Below are positions 3,676 to 11,242 of a DNA stretch of 28,988 bases, piece by piece. The notes beneath the pieces were generated by a model that saw only the letters and a program-made list of their open reading frames with translations, made no database searches and had not been told where the DNA came from. The translations under genes and the position numbers were made by a program. The stretch is from a virus (lineage: Duplodnaviria; Heunggongvirae; Uroviricota; Caudoviricetes): the IMG/VR virus record IMGVR_UViG_2778261696_000006; one strand, 5' to 3'. Within the stretch, counting starts at the first letter, position 1. Every line of letters starts with the position of its first letter.

Positions 3676-3977
3676 AAGCGGGTGAACGTCTGGCCGGTCT
3701 CAATCATGTTGCCGAATTGCGCGCGAGATATTGGGGCGATAGCTGGAAAGAGGTTGAACGTTTTGTCGATGATATGCGCAATAAACGTGACCCACAATTT
3801 GAAGAAAATAATCGGGCGCTGGCCGCTATTTTCTTTCTGGCAAAAATACCGGCGGCTCGTCATGAACTCGAATTAAGTGAGCTGACTACTGACGAGAAAA
3901 AGGCGCTTATTACAGCGATGAATCATTTTCGTGCAGTAGTGAGCTTATTTCCCAAACGGCTAACCATGCCGAATTAA
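3639..3977 (+). CDS. Hypothetical early protein (position of 186 dhr-region genes)
   Basis: 112-aa ORF with ATG and G-rich RBS, overlaps preceding gene by 37 nt in another frame. Confidence 0.5.
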   Translation: MAIEAVSATVPLKAGERLAGLNHVAELRARYWGDSWKEVERFVDDMRNKRDPQFEENNRALAAIFFLAKIPAARHELELSELTTDEKKALITAMNHFRAVVSLFPKRLTMPN

Positions 3978-4044
3978 TCCAAACAGAAATTTAATGGCGT
4001 AAACCCGCCGGGCATCTTATTGCCCGAAATCAGGAGAGTTAATT

Positions 4045-4494: not shown

Positions 4495-6717
4495 TTGGCT
4501 GTTCAATTCGCTTATCCGTGGAACGTTCCACGGTCGGCAATCTCCAGCCCATACCTTACTTATGCGCAACAGCATCGCCGCGACCGTATGTTCGCGGCTT
4601 TGCTGCATGCAAAAAAGGTGCTTTCTCTCCAGCCCGACTGCGTGCGGTTAGATGTTTATCGCACTGCTGCGGTGCTGGAGCAAAATCAGGGTAGTCAACG
4701 AGCCAATGCATTTTTAATCAGCTTCTGCAAAAAGGCATTGCCGCGTCTTGAACTGGTCGCAAAAAAATACGAATGCGCTGGTATCAACAGCAAGGTATCA
4801 ACCGCTGTTTTTGGAAGTCATTTTGATACTCAGCAAATGCAATATCTGTCGTCACGCATGGTTAATATGGTCGCCCGATATAACCGTCTCCCGGACATGT
4901 CGCGCGCTGATGTTGACCTGTTGGCCGCTGATATTGCTAATTTCATTCGTGGTGAACTTGCCAACATTAATGACCACGGATTCGGCGAGCTTAAAACGCT
5001 GTACACCTGGTATATTCGTGCTGGCTTTATTTCCCTCCAATTTAACGTTATCCCACCACATTGGGAGCGGGTTGAAAAAAAATATGTCGGTGCGGATGAA
5101 ATCGCACCGGCTATCGCCAAAATGTTTAACGATGGGTGGTGGCGCGGTCGTTTGCGCCGTGTTGCAGCTACGTGGCGCGAACACCTGCAAATTGCAGTCG
5201 GCAACGTCAGTAAGAAAAAAAACACTTACGCGAGTAAAAACTGCGTGACTGACTGGCGTGAACAAAAGCGCCGCACTCGTGAATTTCTCAAAGGTCTGGA
5301 TCTCGAAGACGAAGACGGCAACCGTATCAGCCTGATTGAAAAATATGATGGCTCAGTTGCTAACCCTGCGATTCGCCGCTGTGAGCTCATGACCCGCATT
5401 CGTGGGTTTGAAAACATCTGTAATGAGCTCGGTTATGTCGGTGAGTTTTACACTCTAACCGCGCCGTCAAAATATCACGCCACGACTAAAGCCGGTTACC
5501 GTAACAGCAAATGGAGCGGTGCCAGCCCGGCTGACACGCAAAACTATCTAACCGGTATCTGGGCGCGTATCCGTGCCAAACTACATCGGGAAGATGTCCG
5601 TATTTTCGGTATTCGTGTCGCCGAGCCTCATCACGACGGCACTCCACACTGGCACATGCTGATGTTCATGCTGCCGGAAGATGTTGAATATGTTCGCTCC
5701 ATCGTCCGTAAATACGCATGGAAAGAAGACCGCCACGAACTGAAAAGCGATAAATCCAAAAAAGCACGTTTCCACGCCGAGTCCATTGACCCGGAGAAAG
5801 GCAGTGCAACCGGCTATGTTGCTAAATACATCTCAAAAAATATCGACGGTTATGCTCTCGATGGTGAAACCGATGATGAAAGCGGTGAGCTGCTGAAAGA
5901 GACAGCCCCCGCCGTTTCAGCATGGGCTGCGCGCTGGCACATCCGTCAGTTTCAGTTTATTGGTGGTGCGCCGGTGACGGTTTACCGTGAGTTGCGTCGC
6001 CTCGCTGATACCGAAACCGCGCGCGGTCTGAGCGTTGAGTTTGCCGCCGTCCATGATGCCGCCGACGCTGGTGACTGGGCTGGTTATGTTAATGCTCAGG
6101 GTGGGCCGTTTGTCCGTCGCGATGATTTACAGGTGCGCACACTGTATGAACCGCGTACCGAGCTTAATCAGTACGGTGAGGAAACGGTATGTATTAAGGG
6201 GGTCTACGATTCCTCCATAGGTGCAGGGAGTCCGATTTTAACCCGGCTCACTCAGTGGAAGATTGTTCCGAAGCGTGCTGTTGATTTGGCCGTTGACCTT
6301 CAGGACGGCAAAGCCGTCCCTCGGAGTTCTGTCAATAACTGTACGGGAAGCGAAAGCGATCCACCGATACTGGATTTAACAAAACCACTGAGTCGGCGTG
6401 AAAGACGAGAATTGACCAACCGACTCAGGAAGCAAAAGCCAGCAGCACGGCGAAAACTCATCCACGGAACGGATGAGCAAAACGCAGCTATAGCTAAAAC
6501 TATCGACGAGATACATCTGACAACCGGCATTAATATCAGCCGGGGCGAAGCCCTGCACCTGATGGCCGGTGGTAAAAGTTGTTTTGATGGTAAATGGCTA
6601 CGCGGAACGGCCAAAGGAGAAATATTTTCCGCAGCACCATCGCATGAGGCTAAAGCTCGGAAAATCCTTAATCGTGTTGCGGCGATGGCTGAAGCATCAA
6701 AACCAATACATGAGTAA
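4495..6717 (+). CDS. A: Replication initiation protein A (rolling-circle HUH endonuclease); start is TTG 4495 or a downstream ATG
   Basis: 740-aa ORF containing HUH motif (TPHWHMLMF) and catalytic tyrosine motif YVAKYISKNIDGYALDG as in P2/186 gpA. Confidence 0.9.
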   Translation: MAVQFAYPWNVPRSAISSPYLTYAQQHRRDRMFAALLHAKKVLSLQPDCVRLDVYRTAAVLEQNQGSQRANAFLISFCKKALPRLELVAKKYECAGINSKVSTAVFGSHFDTQQMQYLSSRMVNMVARYNRLPDMSRADVDLLAADIANFIRGELANINDHGFGELKTLYTWYIRAGFISLQFNVIPPHWERVEKKYVGADEIAPAIAKMFNDGWWRGRLRRVAATWREHLQIAVGNVSKKKNTYASKNCVTDWREQKRRTREFLKGLDLEDEDGNRISLIEKYDGSVANPAIRRCELMTRIRGFENICNELGYVGEFYTLTAPSKYHATTKAGYRNSKWSGASPADTQNYLTGIWARIRAKLHREDVRIFGIRVAEPHHDGTPHWHMLMFMLPEDVEYVRSIVRKYAWKEDRHELKSDKSKKARFHAESIDPEKGSATGYVAKYISKNIDGYALDGETDDESGELLKETAPAVSAWAARWHIRQFQFIGGAPVTVYRELRRLADTETARGLSVEFAAVHDAADAGDWAGYVNAQGGPFVRRDDLQVRTLYEPRTELNQYGEETVCIKGVYDSSIGAGSPILTRLTQWKIVPKRAVDLAVDLQDGKAVPRSSVNNCTGSESDPPILDLTKPLSRRERRELTNRLRKQKPAARRKLIHGTDEQNAAIAKTIDEIHLTTGINISRGEALHLMAGGKSCFDGKWLRGTAKGEIFSAAPSHEAKARKILNRVAAMAEASKPIHE

Positions 6718-6777: not shown

Positions 6778-6811
6778 TTGCCAATACGTGCTACTGTATA
6801 AATATACAGTA
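6778..6811 (+). promoter_or_regulatory. SOS-regulated promoter: -35 TTGCCA (6778-6783) with LexA box TACTGTATAAATATACAGTA (6792-6811)
   Basis: Perfect 9-bp dyad arms CTGT-N8-ACAG matching LexA consensus, overlapping the -10 region 20 nt upstream of ATG 6831. Confidence 0.75.
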
Positions 6812-6830: not shown

Positions 6831-7013
6831 ATGGTTGGCGAACATTTCAGCCGAACGCAGCAAAAGTGGGCTTGTGTGCAATTTATTGCCGAGGTATCTC
6901 TGATTGCAAACTGCAAGCCATCAGACTTAAAGCTCGCGCTCACTCTCATTGCAGACCTAGCAAACAGCGAAAATAACGAAACCGAAGATGATAATTTTTA
7001 TAAGGCTGATTAG
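6831..7013 (+). CDS. LexA-controlled small protein, candidate Tum-type antirepressor
   Basis: 60-aa ORF with RBS GGGAGGG, immediately downstream of LexA box; positional analogy to the 186 p95/tum operon; no sequence-level confirmation possible here. Confidence 0.4.
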   Translation: MVGEHFSRTQQKWACVQFIAEVSLIANCKPSDLKLALTLIADLANSENNETEDDNFYKAD

Positions 7014-7016
7014 ATT

Positions 7017-7247
7017 ATGAGAATCAATATCACGTTGGATAAAGAGCAAAAATTAGGGCAACAGATCATTGATGCTTTTCAGAATGAAATAACACATCGA
7101 GTACAATGCGTTTTTCCTGCAACAAAAGTTAACGTTAAGAAAGGGTCAATGACTGGTGTAGAGGCTATCGGATTCGATAAAGAGGCGGACAGAGAAACAT
7201 TAGGCAGCATATTACAAGAGATTTGGGAAGACGATAGCTGGCGTTAA
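7017..7247 (+). CDS. dinI: DinI-family protein
   Basis: 76 aa, MRINITLDKEQ...LQEIWEDDSW resembles DinI family (MRIEV...ILQETWE); second gene of the LexA-box operon. Confidence 0.75.
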   Translation: MRINITLDKEQKLGQQIIDAFQNEITHRVQCVFPATKVNVKKGSMTGVEAIGFDKEADRETLGSILQEIWEDDSWR

Positions 7248-7265
7248 ACAGAATAACCGTGCTGG

Positions 7266-7329
7266 CGCAAAAACTAGCTTTTTGCGTCGGCGGGGTTGAG
7301 TAACGAGCCCACGAGGCTTAAGTCCTGCC
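7266..7329 (+). repeat. Structured repeat copy R1 (hairpin plus GGCGGGGTTGA...AACGAGC...ACGAGGC...CCTGCC)
   Basis: Hairpin CGCAAAAA-CTAGC-TTTTTGCG followed by conserved GC-rich core; about 80 percent identical to copy at 7672-7733. Confidence 0.6.
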
Positions 7330-7446
7330 TTTCAAAATTTCTCAATGTGCTATTGATGACACCCCCATGATTAATGAGGCATGACCTGAGATGGTTTTAT
7401 AGTGGCGTTTTGACGGCACTGATTAAAATTCATTGAGGGTGATAAT

Positions 7447-7656
7447 ATGCATCGACTACCAGGTGAAATTCCGCAGCACAAAACTAAATGCATCAAACTG
7501 ATGGCCATCGTTCATCGTCTGCAGCAGATAATGGTCAATGAGAATTTGACACCCGCCGAGCTGGTCGGGTGTGCCGAAATAGTCAGGGATAATTACGGCA
7601 AGCTGGATAGCATCAGCAAGCCGACACATTACTCACCGCCACCACGTCGACCATAG
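7447..7656 (+). CDS. Orphan 69-aa protein flanked by R1/R2 repeats
   Basis: ATG with RBS GAGG about 8 nt upstream; no recognisable motif; lies in the A-to-cos accessory interval. Confidence 0.45.
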   Translation: MHRLPGEIPQHKTKCIKLMAIVHRLQQIMVNENLTPAELVGCAEIVRDNYGKLDSISKPTHYSPPPRRP

Positions 7657-7671
7657 ATAACGCCGCCGGAG

Positions 7672-7733
7672 CTGAAACTCGCTTTCAGGTCTGGCGGGGT
7701 TGAACAACGAGCTACGCGAGGCGTTAGCCCGCC
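7672..7733 (+). repeat. Structured repeat copy R2 (hairpin plus GGCGGGGTTGA...AACGAGC...ACGCGAGGC...CCCGCC)
   Basis: Hairpin CTGAAA-CTCGC-TTTCAG then conserved core; outer GGCGGG/CCCGCC can pair (R1 keeps pairing via a G-U). Confidence 0.6.
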
Positions 7734-7938
7734 CCGTAGAGACCGCTCCAAACCGTCGCACTGAATGCCGGTTTTTTTATGTTATTTTCCCGCGATTTCC
7801 CCGTTTTTTAGCCGTGCATGCATCAGGTGCATGGTTTTGCATGCGTCAGTCTTGCCCCTTCTGTCCGTGCGCCGCCAGAGCTGGCGCGGATCCAGAGTTG
7901 TCATGCAACTGCATTAAAACCGACCCATAAAGCGGGCA

Positions 7939-7957
7939 GGCGTGGCGGGGAAAGCAT
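7939..7957 (+). other. cos: cos cohesive-end site (19-nt, 186-type)
   Basis: GGCGTGGCGGGGAAAGCAT matches the remembered 186 cohesive end (P2: GGCGAGGCGGGGAAAGCAC); the following sequence TGCGCGCCAGCGGTGGTGCG...CGTCGTGACGGCGCT resembles the P2 left end as I recall it; location between A-side accessory genes and 3' end of Q. Confidence 0.65.
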
Positions 7958-8161
7958 TGCGCGCCAGCGGTGGTGCGTATTATTAAAAATTATCGTCTGA
8001 GAACGTCGTGACGGCGCTGTAGTGGCCGGGTGTGATCGTGGGCGCGTGGTGCGTCTGTGGCGTGGTGCTAAAGGATGGGATCAGTTGCACAATTTTACGG
8101 TTTCGCTTTGGCTAATATCCATATTGAGACTTTATGTTCCCCACAACAGTTGGAGGCTTTA

Positions 8162-8386
8162 ATGGATAACTATCATATTACAAAAGATGGCGATAAGTGG
8201 AAGTTGCAAAAAGAGGGCAATGATCGCCCTAGCAAGACCGCGACCACAAAGGCCGAGCTGATTAAAACAACATCTGAGTTTATGTCGAACAAAACAGGCT
8301 CGGTCAAAATTCACAAGGAAGATGGGAAAATTCAGGAAGAACGCACTTATCAGAGAAAAGATGATCCTAAAAAGTCTAAAGGCTAA
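8162..8386 (+). CDS. DUF2188-like small protein (moron between cos and portal gene)
   Basis: 74 aa, RBS GGAGG 5 nt upstream of ATG; motif YHITKDGDKWKLQKEG...KAELIKTTSEF...VKIHKEDGKIQEERTY resembles DUF2188 family from memory. Confidence 0.55.
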   Translation: MDNYHITKDGDKWKLQKEGNDRPSKTATTKAELIKTTSEFMSNKTGSVKIHKEDGKIQEERTYQRKDDPKKSKG

Positions 8387-8424: not shown

Positions 8425-9471
8425 TTATTCCGGGTTGTCGAGTGTGTACTCTTTGAACCTGATGACCTCCATACCGAGCCAGTCGTTTACCTCCCTGAAC
8501 CTATCCTGCAGGGGTGACAGCTCATTACGCACAAATACCTTTGCCACCTTCTCAACGTCACCGAGTGAACCGATATTCTCGGGCTTGCCGCCCATGAGCT
8601 GGAACGGCACGCGGTGCGCGTCCATCAGGTCGGCGGCGCTGGCTTTCTTAATGTTGAAAAAGTCATCCTTTGTGGCGACCTCGCTCAGTGGCACGATTTT
8701 GATGCCGTCCGGTTTTCCGCCGGGGGCGTAGAAAAACAGGTTCTTAAAGTTGCCGAGTCCCTTCGAGTTACGCATCGCCTCGCGCAGCGATTCGACGTCG
8801 GTCGCACTTTGCGCCGGGTCAGTCACATACATGATGTAGCCTGCGTGCGCGCCGTTCTGATAATACTTGCGGCGGAACAGCGTCGCGGATTCATTCAGCC
8901 AAGCGGAATTAAGCGCGCTGAGATATTCCGGCAGACCGTAAATCTCCTGATTAATGTCGGGCTCCAGCAGGTGAAACACGGTATCAGGCGCGAACTCGTG
9001 CGGCTGGGTGAAGTTTTCCACAAACCAGAAAATCGAATCGTCGACTCCGCGTCGGGTGTATTTGGCTGGCGAGGCCAGCAGTTTGATTAACTGGCCGGTG
9101 ACGCTGTGGCGCTGCTCAAGAAAGGCGTTACCGAATACCAGATAATCGAGCGCAAAGCGGCTGAAATCCTGACGGGATAACAACGGGTGCGGAATGTAGG
9201 TGCTCGCGAGCACGTTACGCTTAACATAAATTGGCGAGCTGTGATGCACGGCAGAGCGCAGGCTCTTTGCCAGCCCTGAGAAGCTGACCGGCGGCTCGTA
9301 CCATTTGCCGTTACTGATGCACTCGACGTAATCCAGAATGTCGCGCTTATCGAGTACCGGCACCGGCTCGCCGAAGGTGAACGCTGTCGTTTTTGGCGGT
9401 GCGCTGGCGGTCAGTTGTTGTGGTTTGCTGGCCTTTTGTGCGTTGGCTTTACGGGATTTTTGTTTACCCAT
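8425..9471 (-). CDS. Q: Portal protein (P2 gpQ)
   Basis: 348 aa, size and position match P2 Q; stop/start overlap with P upstream on same strand. Confidence 0.9.
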   Translation of the reverse strand: MGKQKSRKANAQKASKPQQLTASAPPKTTAFTFGEPVPVLDKRDILDYVECISNGKWYEPPVSFSGLAKSLRSAVHHSSPIYVKRNVLASTYIPHPLLSRQDFSRFALDYLVFGNAFLEQRHSVTGQLIKLLASPAKYTRRGVDDSIFWFVENFTQPHEFAPDTVFHLLEPDINQEIYGLPEYLSALNSAWLNESATLFRRKYYQNGAHAGYIMYVTDPAQSATDVESLREAMRNSKGLGNFKNLFFYAPGGKPDGIKIVPLSEVATKDDFFNIKKASAADLMDAHRVPFQLMGGKPENIGSLGDVEKVAKVFVRNELSPLQDRFREVNDWLGMEVIRFKEYTLDNPE

Positions 9472-9472
9472 T

Positions 9473-11242
9473 TTAGTTGAACTCCAGAATAGATTTAGGC
9501 TGCATGCCGCTACCGGCAGAAAGCGGTTCGTTTAACAGGGCGTGCATGGTCGCCCATGCGATATCGGCGTGGCTGGCTTCCTCGGTGCGGCTGGCCTCAT
9601 AGGTAGCGCTGCGCCCGCTGCTGGTCATGGTTTTGCGGATGGACATAAACGACTGCGTGACGTCGGTTGCTCCGGCGTCGTACTCCAGACAGCCACGGCG
9701 AATGGTGTCTTTCGCCTTGAGTACCATTGCGGTTTTCATTTCAGGTGTGTAACGGATGCCGCGTGCCGCCGGGTAAAATGAGCGCACCAGCTGGAACACG
9801 CCGAGACCGAGGCCGGTTGCGTCAATGCCGATGTATTCGACGTTGTATTTCTCGGTCAGCTTGCGGATGCCCTCTGCCTGTGCTGCAAAATCCATACCCT
9901 TCCACTGGTGGCGCTCCAGCATGCGGAACTTGCCACCAGAGACCACCGGCGGCGCGAGCACGACGCACCCGGCACTGTCGCCGGTGTGTGACGGGTCGTA
10001 GCCTATCCAGACAGGACGAGAGCCGAACGGATGGTCGGCGAACGGGGCAAAGTCCTCCCATTCCTCCATCACATCGACCATGCAGCGCTGCAGCTCCTCG
10101 AACGGGAATACCGACGCTTTATCGTCGACAAACTCGCACATAAACAGGTTCTTAAAGTCCTCATCACTGTTTTCGCGTTTGAGCTGGTCGAGGTCGAACA
10201 GGGTGCAGCCACCCGCAAGGGCGTCCTCAATGGTGACAATCTGCCGCCACTGGCCATCGTCGCAGAGCTGGCCACCGGCGAGCGCGCTGTGACTGATGTC
10301 GATTTCGATGCGGTCGGCAATCCGGCTGCGCCCCTTGTTGAACAGCTCGCCAGACCAGAAGGGGTAAGCGCCGTGCGCCAGCGTGGAAGGTGTCGAAAAA
10401 TAGGTCGAGCGCAGGTGCTTTTGCGAGGCCATGCCCGAGGCGACTTTGCGCAGTTTCTGAAAATTCGGGATCCAGAATATTTCATCGACATACAGATCGC
10501 CGTTATGGCTCTGCGCGGTGTTGGAATTGGTACCGAGAAAAATCAGTTTTGCGCCGTTGTTACCGATGACAATCGGGTCGCCAGTCAGGTCAACGTCGAC
10601 CAGTCGCGCAAACTGGATGATGTATTCGCGGAACACGTAAGCCTGCGTTTTACTGGCTGATAAAAATATCTGGTTATGGCCGGTTTTGAGTGCGCGCAGC
10701 AGTGCCTCGCGGGAGAAATAGAATGTCGCGCCAATCTGGCGGGATTTGAGAATGTCACGAATACGGTGCTCCAGTCCTGCGCGGTACCACTGCAACTGGT
10801 ACTCGAAAGACTGGTCGAAAAATAATTCCTCTAGTTTATCGATAGCCTCGTCGCTGAAAAAATTCTTTTTCGGCTTTTTGCGCTCCCCTTTGTTGCGGTT
10901 GGCGACGTTGGGGTTAAGGTCGGCTTCGTTGCCGGTCTGGCTGTAGCGGTTGACTCGCGCCAACCGTTCAATCTGCCGTCCGAGCAGGTCAATCTCTTTG
11001 AAATCACCCCCTGTCTTTTGCGGCTTGGCGATGAGCTGAATCAGCCTAGCCTCAAGGCTGCTTTCAACGCGGGAAATCGGCGCGATGCCGTCCCAGCCGT
11101 CGCGCTGCTTCCAGCTCTGCACGGTCGGGCGCTTGACCTGCAGCATTTCGGCAATCTGTGGCACGGAAAAACCCTGCCAGTAAAGCAGCGATGCCTGCCG
11201 TCGCGGGTCATGCAACAAGGTTGTATCGGTGGAAATGGTCAT
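9473..11242 (-). CDS. P: Terminase large (ATPase) subunit (P2 gpP)
   Basis: 589 aa, P2 P-like size and position, divergent from O. Confidence 0.9.
   Translation of the reverse strand: MTISTDTTLLHDPRRQASLLYWQGFSVPQIAEMLQVKRPTVQSWKQRDGWDGIAPISRVESSLEARLIQLIAKPQKTGGDFKEIDLLGRQIERLARVNRYSQTGNEADLNPNVANRNKGERKKPKKNFFSDEAIDKLEELFFDQSFEYQLQWYRAGLEHRIRDILKSRQIGATFYFSREALLRALKTGHNQIFLSASKTQAYVFREYIIQFARLVDVDLTGDPIVIGNNGAKLIFLGTNSNTAQSHNGDLYVDEIFWIPNFQKLRKVASGMASQKHLRSTYFSTPSTLAHGAYPFWSGELFNKGRSRIADRIEIDISHSALAGGQLCDDGQWRQIVTIEDALAGGCTLFDLDQLKRENSDEDFKNLFMCEFVDDKASVFPFEELQRCMVDVMEEWEDFAPFADHPFGSRPVWIGYDPSHTGDSAGCVVLAPPVVSGGKFRMLERHQWKGMDFAAQAEGIRKLTEKYNVEYIGIDATGLGLGVFQLVRSFYPAARGIRYTPEMKTAMVLKAKDTIRRGCLEYDAGATDVTQSFMSIRKTMTSSGRSATYEASRTEEASHADIAWATMHALLNEPLSAGSGMQPKSILEFN

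Follow-up and report, generated by a model that had tools for sequence, protein, structure and literature searches.

The stretch of DNA analyzed here, 28,988 nucleotides (nt) of a virus of the Caudoviricetes (IMG/VR record IMGVR_UViG_2778261696_000006) and in the following called the window, holds a prophage that is of the 186/PSP3-like type within the Peduoviridae and not P2-like. The subject of this study is an open reading frame at positions 7447-7656 on its plus strand, running from ATG to TAG and encoding 69 amino acids (aa), which we call ORF69. ORF69 is a true gene for a small protein and is under strong constraint. We are highly confident that it is a real member of the PSP3 gp37 (phrog_11386) family, and that it stands as a flank gene in an SOS operon or an early operon.

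The role that we propose for the protein is far more tentative. Domain fusions in related prophages, read as a 'Rosetta stone', would make ORF69 a protein that is produced at induction and modulates ClpX-dependent proteolysis, an assignment that is possible but rather doubtful. Taken as a whole, with family, operon placement, flank position and ClpX mechanism combined, this is the best explanation of the gene, albeit one that we think somewhat more apt to fail in one of its parts than to stand entire.

A constrained member of the PSP3 gp37 family

An earlier description made from the letters of the window alone (the sequence-only reading) gave the 69-aa frame with a translation that matches exactly, and called the gene an orphan, which it is not. 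Residues 1-69 of ORF69 align with all 69 positions of the profile phrog_11386 (E=1e-46), and gp37 (orf37) of Salmonella phage PSP3 is 90% identical to ORF69 and equal in length. In a large protein database 184 clusters are homologous to ORF69, a tblastn search with the protein gave matches in 37 phage records, PSP3 gp37 among them, and the identical 69-residue protein is recorded in 422 blocks of an assembly index. The 210 nt of ORF69 recur with 100% identity in Escherichia coli EC12, where the RefSeq product name is hypothetical protein. Homologues have carried that same annotation in hundreds of genomes, and in PSP3 since 2002. What is new here is thus one more member of an already known, uncharacterised family. 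In the literature searched on PSP3 gp37, orf91, the TO region, phage ClpX zinc fingers and the hotspot we found no mention of the ORF69 gene.

Several lines of evidence show that the frame is a protein-coding gene under selection. The ribosome-binding site that the sequence-only reading had judged reasonable is a Shine-Dalgarno sequence, GAGGG (7435-7439, plus strand), ending 7 nt 5' of the ATG, and the block TTCATTGAGGGyGATAATATG around the start is conserved among 186-like homologues. The ORF69 frame is the sole stop-free frame in 12 of 12 homologues, the other frames containing 1-7 stops each. Variable alignment columns are distributed over codon positions 1/2/3 as 21/13/45, and the ratio of nonsynonymous to synonymous substitutions (dN/dS) for codons 1-55 is 0.03-0.16 in pairwise comparisons of 10 homologues (Nei-Gojobori), falling to about 0.05 in the 45-residue hairpin core described below. 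The synonymous term dS between homologues is often above 1 and frequently saturated, with dN near 0.1. These values are those of purifying selection, and the substitution pattern of non-coding sequence was absent.

The possibility that ORF69 is a chance reading frame, conserved non-coding DNA or the shadow of a true gene on the opposite strand can on this evidence be dismissed almost entirely. It could draw on an antisense frame of 57 aa that overlaps ORF69 at 7456-7629, and on one phage record with a minus-strand coding sequence across the region. Only the plus frame is open throughout the homologues, however, variability is concentrated at third positions, dN/dS is far below 1, and neither the ORF69 region nor the R element next to it (see below) has a match in Rfam. 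An antisense gene, such as the minus-strand coding sequence annotated in phage P24A7b, was therefore ruled out by its stops and by the codon-position pattern.

Both close and distant homologues keep the same position in the Peduoviridae, lying after gpA and ahead of cos and the portal gene Q; five of the six distant homologues are found in a P2-like context. The gene is missing from both P2 and 186, and ORF69 is an accessory gene. A profile scan of contigs with the alignment of close homologues returned 5 loci. In complete E. coli genomes, surveyed by DNA-level similarity searches only, ORF69-related DNA is present in 456 of 5426 genomes at 478 places, R-like DNA in 527 genomes at 574 places, and portal-like DNA at 4605 places. 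About a tenth of the E. coli P2-like loci carry the unit of ORF69 plus R, a figure that is a lower bound because the search was limited to DNA-level similarity.

Some copies are decayed or misannotated. The copy in phage Wphi (L005, about 3790-4010) can be read to its end only with two frameshifts, and an overlapping gene, gp92, is annotated there in a different frame. In P24A7b (L002, 2573-2872) a minus-strand frame is annotated over the ORF69 homologue. Decay or annotation problems also affect the homologue clusters P0023, P0059, P0090, P0098, P0112 and P0122, some of which are +1-frameshifted tails, and truncated homologue calls of 51 aa have been wrongly named 'meiotically up-regulated 80 protein'.

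Predicted structure of the protein

ORF69 has three predicted parts, namely a short N-terminus containing proline and histidine, a two-helix hairpin, and a fast-evolving flexible tail. In an AlphaFold2 model built from a 30-sequence alignment the helices span residues 10-31 and 36-57, the core has a predicted local distance difference test (pLDDT) score around 95, and both tails are of low confidence. Because the modeled hairpin exposes a broad hydrophobic face, it probably needs a partner or dimerises. The protein is basic (isoelectric point 9.4) and predicted to be soluble, with no predicted membrane helix and no enzymatic domain.

The core (I/L)KLMAIVHRLQQIMVNENLTPxELVGCAEIVRDNY is near-invariant across Escherichia, Salmonella, Citrobacter, Klebsiella, Enterobacter, Buttiauxella and Trabulsiella, and residues C42 and L25 are invariant down to the most distant homologues. 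The linker behind helix 2 varies in length and sequence across 120 clusters. The tail ends in PPPRR[R/P] in most clusters, a loose Pro-x-basic-basic pattern being present in 72 of the 120, and in ORF69 itself in PPPRRP. Some arginine codons in the tail are swapped synonymously (CGT CGA versus CGC AGA). A proline-rich dibasic ending is also found in the distant stand-alone homologues P0125, P0130 and P0143.

The absence of a recognisable motif, as already stated in the sequence-only reading, was borne out in Pfam, NCBIfam and PADLOC (the last at E<=1, with ORF69 and two homologues). A Pfam match to 'Vinculin Binding Site' is noise, at 15 bits against a cutoff of 21. Sensitive searches, which had been proposed as a check, were productive at the profile level, where they gave the full-length phrog_11386 match, and blank at the level of structure: when the hairpin model was compared by Foldseek with PDB and BFVD, no match had an E-value under 1, as expected of a two-helix hairpin. 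A PDB profile search with ORF69 likewise returned only noise. Its best match, the segment 'INRLDDVLIFEGLNPEELVRIVDI' of the ClpB D2 small domain, would be attractive in view of the ClpX link discussed below but was rejected at E=0.61; the matching residues of ORF69 lie in helices 1 and 2, and the AAA+ lid motif is a strand-helix.

Place in the SOS operon of 186-like prophages

The gene order in the window is gpA (4495-6717, plus strand), a LexA box, tumA, dinI, the R copy R1, ORF69, the R copy R2, a terminator and cos. The LexA box TACTGTATAAATATACAGTA (6792-6811, plus strand) is perfect and lies within or overlaps a p95-type SOS promoter 5' of tumA. The tumA-like gene (6831-7013, plus strand; 60 aa; phrog_1993, E=1e-31) encodes a predicted antirepressor and is the first gene of the SOS operon; homologues are annotated as TumA in PSP3 and as 'UV induction of prophage' (UV, ultraviolet) in 613R3. 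It is followed by a dinI/tumB-like gene (7017-7247, plus strand; 76 aa), with matches to Pfam DinI PF06183 (E=1.7e-17) and phrog_189 (E=6e-30). The interval had earlier been compared with the P2 interval that holds tin and old; with tumA and dinI in it, it is of the 186/PSP3 type instead.

The same arrangement can be followed in relatives. The GenBank record of phage 186 lists p95 with a LexA site, tum, t95a ('partial termination'), orf97, t95b and cos in this order, so that LexA box and promoter 5' of tum are annotated there as well; both are also present in PSP3 and in L032. Compared with 186, the window has, like PSP3, separate tumA and dinI genes where 186 has a fused tum, and ORF69 takes the place of orf97, which also fills this slot in Yersinia phage MDG45 and Erwinia phage EtG. 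Positions 7659-7938 of the window align to 186 positions 30344-30624 with 86% identity, and this includes the t95b-type intrinsic terminator (AAACCG...CGGTTTTTTTA; 7750-7779, plus strand), which is collinear with t95b of 186 and consists of a hairpin followed by a U-run. Since a perfect LexA box lies over a p95-type promoter, the prophage is predicted to be SOS-inducible via the Tum antirepressor, like 186 and PSP3.

In the distant 186-like prophage L032 (4730-5330) a LexA box is followed by a tumA homologue (40% identity), a gap of 3 nt, the ORF69 homologue and cos-proximal sequence; this operon contains no dinI, R element or cargo. The L032 layout is the best evidence that the ORF69 family gene belongs to a LexA-controlled operon. 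In the window, a sigma-70 scan between R1 and the ATG of ORF69 found no consensus promoter, and the R1 hairpin, in a single-sequence fold, has no U-tract behind it; the likeliest route to ORF69 expression would for these reasons be read-through of R1 from the SOS promoter. ORF69 is thus predicted to be the last gene of the LexA-repressed tum operon in 186-like prophages, with a predicted transcript end at 7750-7779.

In P2-like E. coli prophages the homologue is 67-78 aa long and its start abuts or overlaps the stop of the preceding gene (for example 4549..5001 followed by 5001..5207). The preceding gene is usually orf91 (ASCH/DUF3850), and the position is the end of the early replication operon. 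From these operon positions, at the end of the tum operon or of the early replication operon, we infer that ORF69 is made at prophage induction or at the start of lytic growth, and not in the resting lysogen.

The R element and the border of the hotspot

The two elements that the sequence-only reading had seen on either side of ORF69 are real. R1 (7253-7323, plus strand; hairpin about 7255-7297) and R2 (7657-7727, plus strand; 18-bp hairpin about 7659-7701), delimited by direct repeat, alignment and consensus fold, share a direct repeat of 56 nt (7253-7308 and 7657-7712) that is 71% identical at a distance of 404 nt and extends to about 70 nt (7253-7323 and 7657-7727) when a 1-nt indel is allowed. 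R2 starts right behind the ORF69 stop. The R consensus is AACGCCGCCrGyrCTGAAACTyGyTTTCAGnnCTGGCGGGGTTGAAyAACGAGnnnnGCGAGGCGTTAG. RNAalifold folds ten copies into an 18-bp hairpin (folding term -27 kcal/mol), in which compensatory changes preserve four of the pairs; R1 and R2 each adopt the consensus hairpin when folded singly, and the element has no U-tract.

R follows the stop directly in most ORF69 homologues examined, in 186-like as well as P2-like lineages (loci L002-L006 and L010-L027). It is also found 3' of orf97 in 186, and 3' of dinI in PSP3 and in the window, here as R1. As for its function, R may be an RNA 3' stabiliser, a processing site or a recombination border. A part of cos or a terminase site, as the shared CTGGCGGGG core might have suggested, was dropped as a candidate, R lying kilobases from cos in cargo-bearing phages. 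The R core CAGGTCTGGCGGGG (7686-7699) does resemble the cos sequence CAGGCGTGGCGGGG (7937-7950; repeat family D2), a likeness that could be chance in GC-rich DNA or a relation of the hotspot border to the packaging site.

Similarity between phages runs through ORF69 and R and stops just after GCGTTAG (GGCGTTAG in R2). Because the homology breaks only there, R2 is the left border of the variable region, and ORF69 lies outside the variable segment, on the flank of the hotspot. Downstream of the border the content changes while the ORF69 family gene remains: it precedes at least six different cargoes. In P2-like prophages the genes 3' of the homologue are a Dcm methylase with two further genes, Dcm with an ATP-binding protein (ATPase), ImmA/IrrE with a hypothetical protein, DUF3696 with a hypothetical protein, a single small hypothetical gene only, or a SIR2-family protein annotated over an R copy (H105); HicAB is among the other cargoes found, and some loci have none. 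Canonical P2 has neither the ORF69 gene nor R, and its tin and old start directly after orf91.

The segment from R2 to cos in the window is 'empty' in this sense, its layout being identical to that of 186. The actual variable cargo of the window is a DUF2188 gene beyond cos (8162-8386, plus strand; 74 aa; ribosome-binding site GGAGG at 8152-8156). Situated on the stretch from cos to the portal gene, it has matches to PDC-S16 (E=1e-14), a candidate defence family of PADLOC, and to phrog_3220, and it is missing from the otherwise identical prophages L023 and L024. The view of ORF69 as cargo of the hotspot thus stands in part: the gene is accessory, missing in P2 and 186, and shares its slot with orf97, but it is not swappable cargo, since homology breaks only after R. 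For about one in ten P2-like loci of E. coli it is therefore the ORF69 gene and a hairpin element of ~70 nt, and not gpA or orf91, that form the left edge of the hotspot, so that screens taking everything from gpA to Q as cargo miscount ORF69.

A possible link to ClpX

Only 32 clusters emerged when 1.84 billion representative proteins were searched exhaustively with an HMMER profile. In six of them (P0138, P0139, P0140, P0142, P0144 and P0146; 101-122 aa) the hairpin is followed by a linker and then by zf-C4_ClpX (PF06689), the zinc-binding domain (ZBD) that forms the N-domain of ClpX, with scores of 43-68 bits (gathering score 27). Three of the four fusion loci that were looked up occupy, in P2-like prophages, the slot from gpA to the portal gene; the fusion proteins in this slot, of 108-122 aa, are encoded at 8001-8369 of L007, 8001-8345 of L008 and 5001-5327 of L030. 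The P0142 group is placed in Serratia by its source names. In the Serratia protein P0153, a homologue of the L007 protein, the ZBD equals E. coli ClpX residues 12-47 (PDB 2DS5) at 33 of 36 positions and is a copy captured from the N-domain of the host's own ClpX. An AlphaFold2 model of a fusion protein shows the hairpin, a low-confidence linker at residues 61-77 and the ZBD. When proteins were searched with a profile of the hairpin only, the stand-alone architecture was the only one among the best 120 of 235 matches.

The properties of the ClpX N-domain make such a fusion suggestive. It dimerises by itself and docks the adaptors SspB and RssB as well as substrates such as MuA and FtsZ (PMC5415555). 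Free ZBD added in trans inhibits RssB-dependent degradation of sigma-S (PMC7226468), and tethering a protein to the ZBD through the XB peptide of SspB suffices for its degradation (PMC12373786). We propose that ORF69 would act on this ZBD network, the docking site of adaptors and of some substrates ahead of degradation by ClpXP. In the fused, Serratia-type form, a hairpin carried on a floppy linker with a captured ZBD would pair with ClpX N-domains or decoy their adaptors, while the stand-alone enterobacterial form would reach the ClpX target through its hairpin or its C-terminal proline-rich dibasic tail. The net outcome would be an altered choice of the proteins degraded by ClpXP during induction; SOS-regulon proteins are, by the title of Neher 2006, reportedly ClpXP substrates. 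More broadly, and with still less confidence than for ORF69 itself, the gp37/ORF69 family might be an unrecognised class of phage modulators of the ClpX N-domain docking platform, rewiring the proteolysis of SOS and phage proteins by ClpXP; the fused ZBD of the Serratia type would in such a class be either a decoy or a poison subunit that heterodimerises. The fusion of the hairpin to a near-exact ClpX N-domain in related prophages makes this a concrete hypothesis that is cheaply testable. In the literature searched we found neither ClpX nor proteins with its zinc finger tied to P2-like phages.

A number of observations weigh against this proposal. ORF69 itself has no ZBD in a Pfam search. The PPPRR tail mismatches the SspB XB motif, the ZBD-binding consensus LKxh and the MuA C-motif-2 degron CILEQNRRKKAI, with which it has only its basic character in common. 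One near-invariant segment where helix 1 begins, (L/I)-K-L-M, does fit LKxh, if loosely, and is probably part of the fold. The fusion model shows no packing of the hairpin on the ZBD (predicted template modelling score 0.36), the fusion P0146 (L029) lies in a non-phage context, and MerR-type regulators (P0163 and P0164) also carry a fused ZBD, so the domain may be a mere zinc-dependent dimerisation module. A conserved TATAGT at 7398-7403, in the block 5' of ORF69, could be a weak promoter of its own, and read-through of R1 is a presumed route. Whatever ORF69 does is dispensable, because the gene is absent from P2 and 186, occurs in only about one in ten P2-like loci of E. coli, and has lost its frame in Wphi and in some clusters through frameshifts.

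Alternative explanations

The hydrophobic face of the hairpin is also compatible with a role independent of ClpX, in which ORF69 would be a small dimeric regulator of lytic development, acting for instance on repressor, antirepressor, replication or RecA/SOS functions together with Tum and DinI, and the ZBD of distant homologues would only dimerise. This is a serious but somewhat unlikely alternative. A broad hydrophobic face would be typical of a dimerising four-helix bundle, ORF69 is co-operonic with tumA (in the window also with dinI) under LexA control, and the P2-like homologues close the replication operon; moreover, the ClpX ZBD is self-dimerising (PMC5415555) and is found on MerR regulators too. 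On the other hand, profile searches gave no DNA-binding or other known motif in ORF69, and the 33 of 36 identities of the Serratia ZBD to ClpX exceed what dimerisation needs, unless the domain was recently captured. The family further occurs in SOS-inducible 186-like phages and in P2-like phages, the latter having no tum and dinI at this place. P2-like phages are not known to be SOS-inducible, and occurrence in both groups argues against a role specific to Tum or CI.

Less probable than a regulator is accessory cargo of the hotspot, that is, a small exclusion, anti-phage or anti-defence factor like tin and old or like orf97 of 186. The variable presence of the gene (absent from P2 and 186, about 478 ORF69 places against 4605 portal places in E. 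coli) fits such a factor, as does its proximity to a proven defence hotspot (PMC9122126), and the direct repeats R1 and R2 could drive the gain or loss of a cassette between them. The slot between tum and R holds orf97 in 186, MDG45 and EtG, with the annotation 'expression from plasmid blocks 186 infection'. ORF69, however, has no PADLOC match, stays constant while the downstream cargo changes, and sits to the left of the R border; it is small, soluble and basic by prediction, with neither an enzymatic domain nor a predicted membrane helix. It is probably silent in the lysogen, as the scan shows no consensus promoter of its own, unlike old and tin, which have their own mapped transcript starts. 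A role mainly in cis we hold to be more improbable again: translation up to the stop, past the proline codons of the PPP motif, or binding of the basic tail to the R hairpin, would control whether this hairpin forms, and with it how stable the transcript is or how far transcription reads on into the hotspot beyond. In most homologues examined the stop codon does lie 2-5 nt from the base of the conserved 18-bp hairpin, the codons CCA CCA CGY MGA CNA TAG, stop included, are unusually conserved as DNA, and a ribosome on the last ORF69 codons would be expected to cover the 5' arm of the hairpin. Yet R exists without ORF69, after orf97 in 186 and after dinI (R1), a homologue exists without R in L032, and the strong amino-acid constraint on the core would be unexpected for a leader-type peptide. 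Modulation of ClpX-dependent proteolysis remains the reading that we prefer.

Features around cos

The cos site of the window was placed by alignment with 186, PSP3 and EtG, the right ends of whose linear genomes align to window position 7938. The 19-nt sequence GGCGTGGCGGGGAAAGCAT that follows at 7939-7957 we take to be the cohesive end itself, by analogy with cos of 186 and P2. A frame of 60 aa across cos (7818-8000, plus strand) is called in several assemblies (for example 5372..5554 in L022), with no Pfam match recorded; it is probably spurious, because the cohesive-end cleavage site falls inside it. Beyond the DUF2188 gene follow, both on the minus strand, the portal gene Q (8425-9471) and the terminase gene P (9473-11242).

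Comparison with known systems

The nearest relative is PSP3 gp37. The identity of 90%, the equal length and the order tumA, tumB/dinI, R1, gp37, R2 and onwards to cos are common to both, and there is no material difference; PSP3 has an extra cargo gene, gp38, between R2 and cos that the window does not have. In 186 the same slot, between tum (with t95a) and R, t95b and cos, is filled by orf97, which resembles ORF69 in being an accessory gene of a LexA-controlled operon. The orf97 protein is unrelated, however, with 243 aa and a hydrophobic N-terminal stretch resembling a membrane helix, and is annotated as blocking 186 infection.

The 'ClpX C4-type zinc finger protein' of Serratia and P2-like prophages has a hairpin homologous to that of ORF69 (profile E=1e-9 to 1e-11), but ends in a C-terminal ZBD (PF06689) where ORF69 has a short proline-rich dibasic tail. 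With SspB, ORF69 shares, by predicted architecture only, a build in which a flexible linker joins a small folded domain to a short C-terminal peptide that is conserved. IraP, IraD and IraM, the anti-adaptors that act on RssB, are like it small stress-induced proteins (PMC5415555, PMC7226468), the stress being SOS in the case of ORF69 by prediction. ORF69 matches none of these ClpX adaptors and anti-adaptors in sequence or fold, and its tail has neither XB nor LKxh, which makes the relation one of analogy and not of membership.

With tin and old of P2, finally, ORF69 has in common the broad interval from gpA to cos of the Peduoviridae. Those genes encode proteins of 253 and 586 aa, are transcribed leftward from their own mapped starts and are described as exclusion genes of lysogenic conversion, whereas ORF69 is small, rightward and operon-distal, and lies outside the variable segment.

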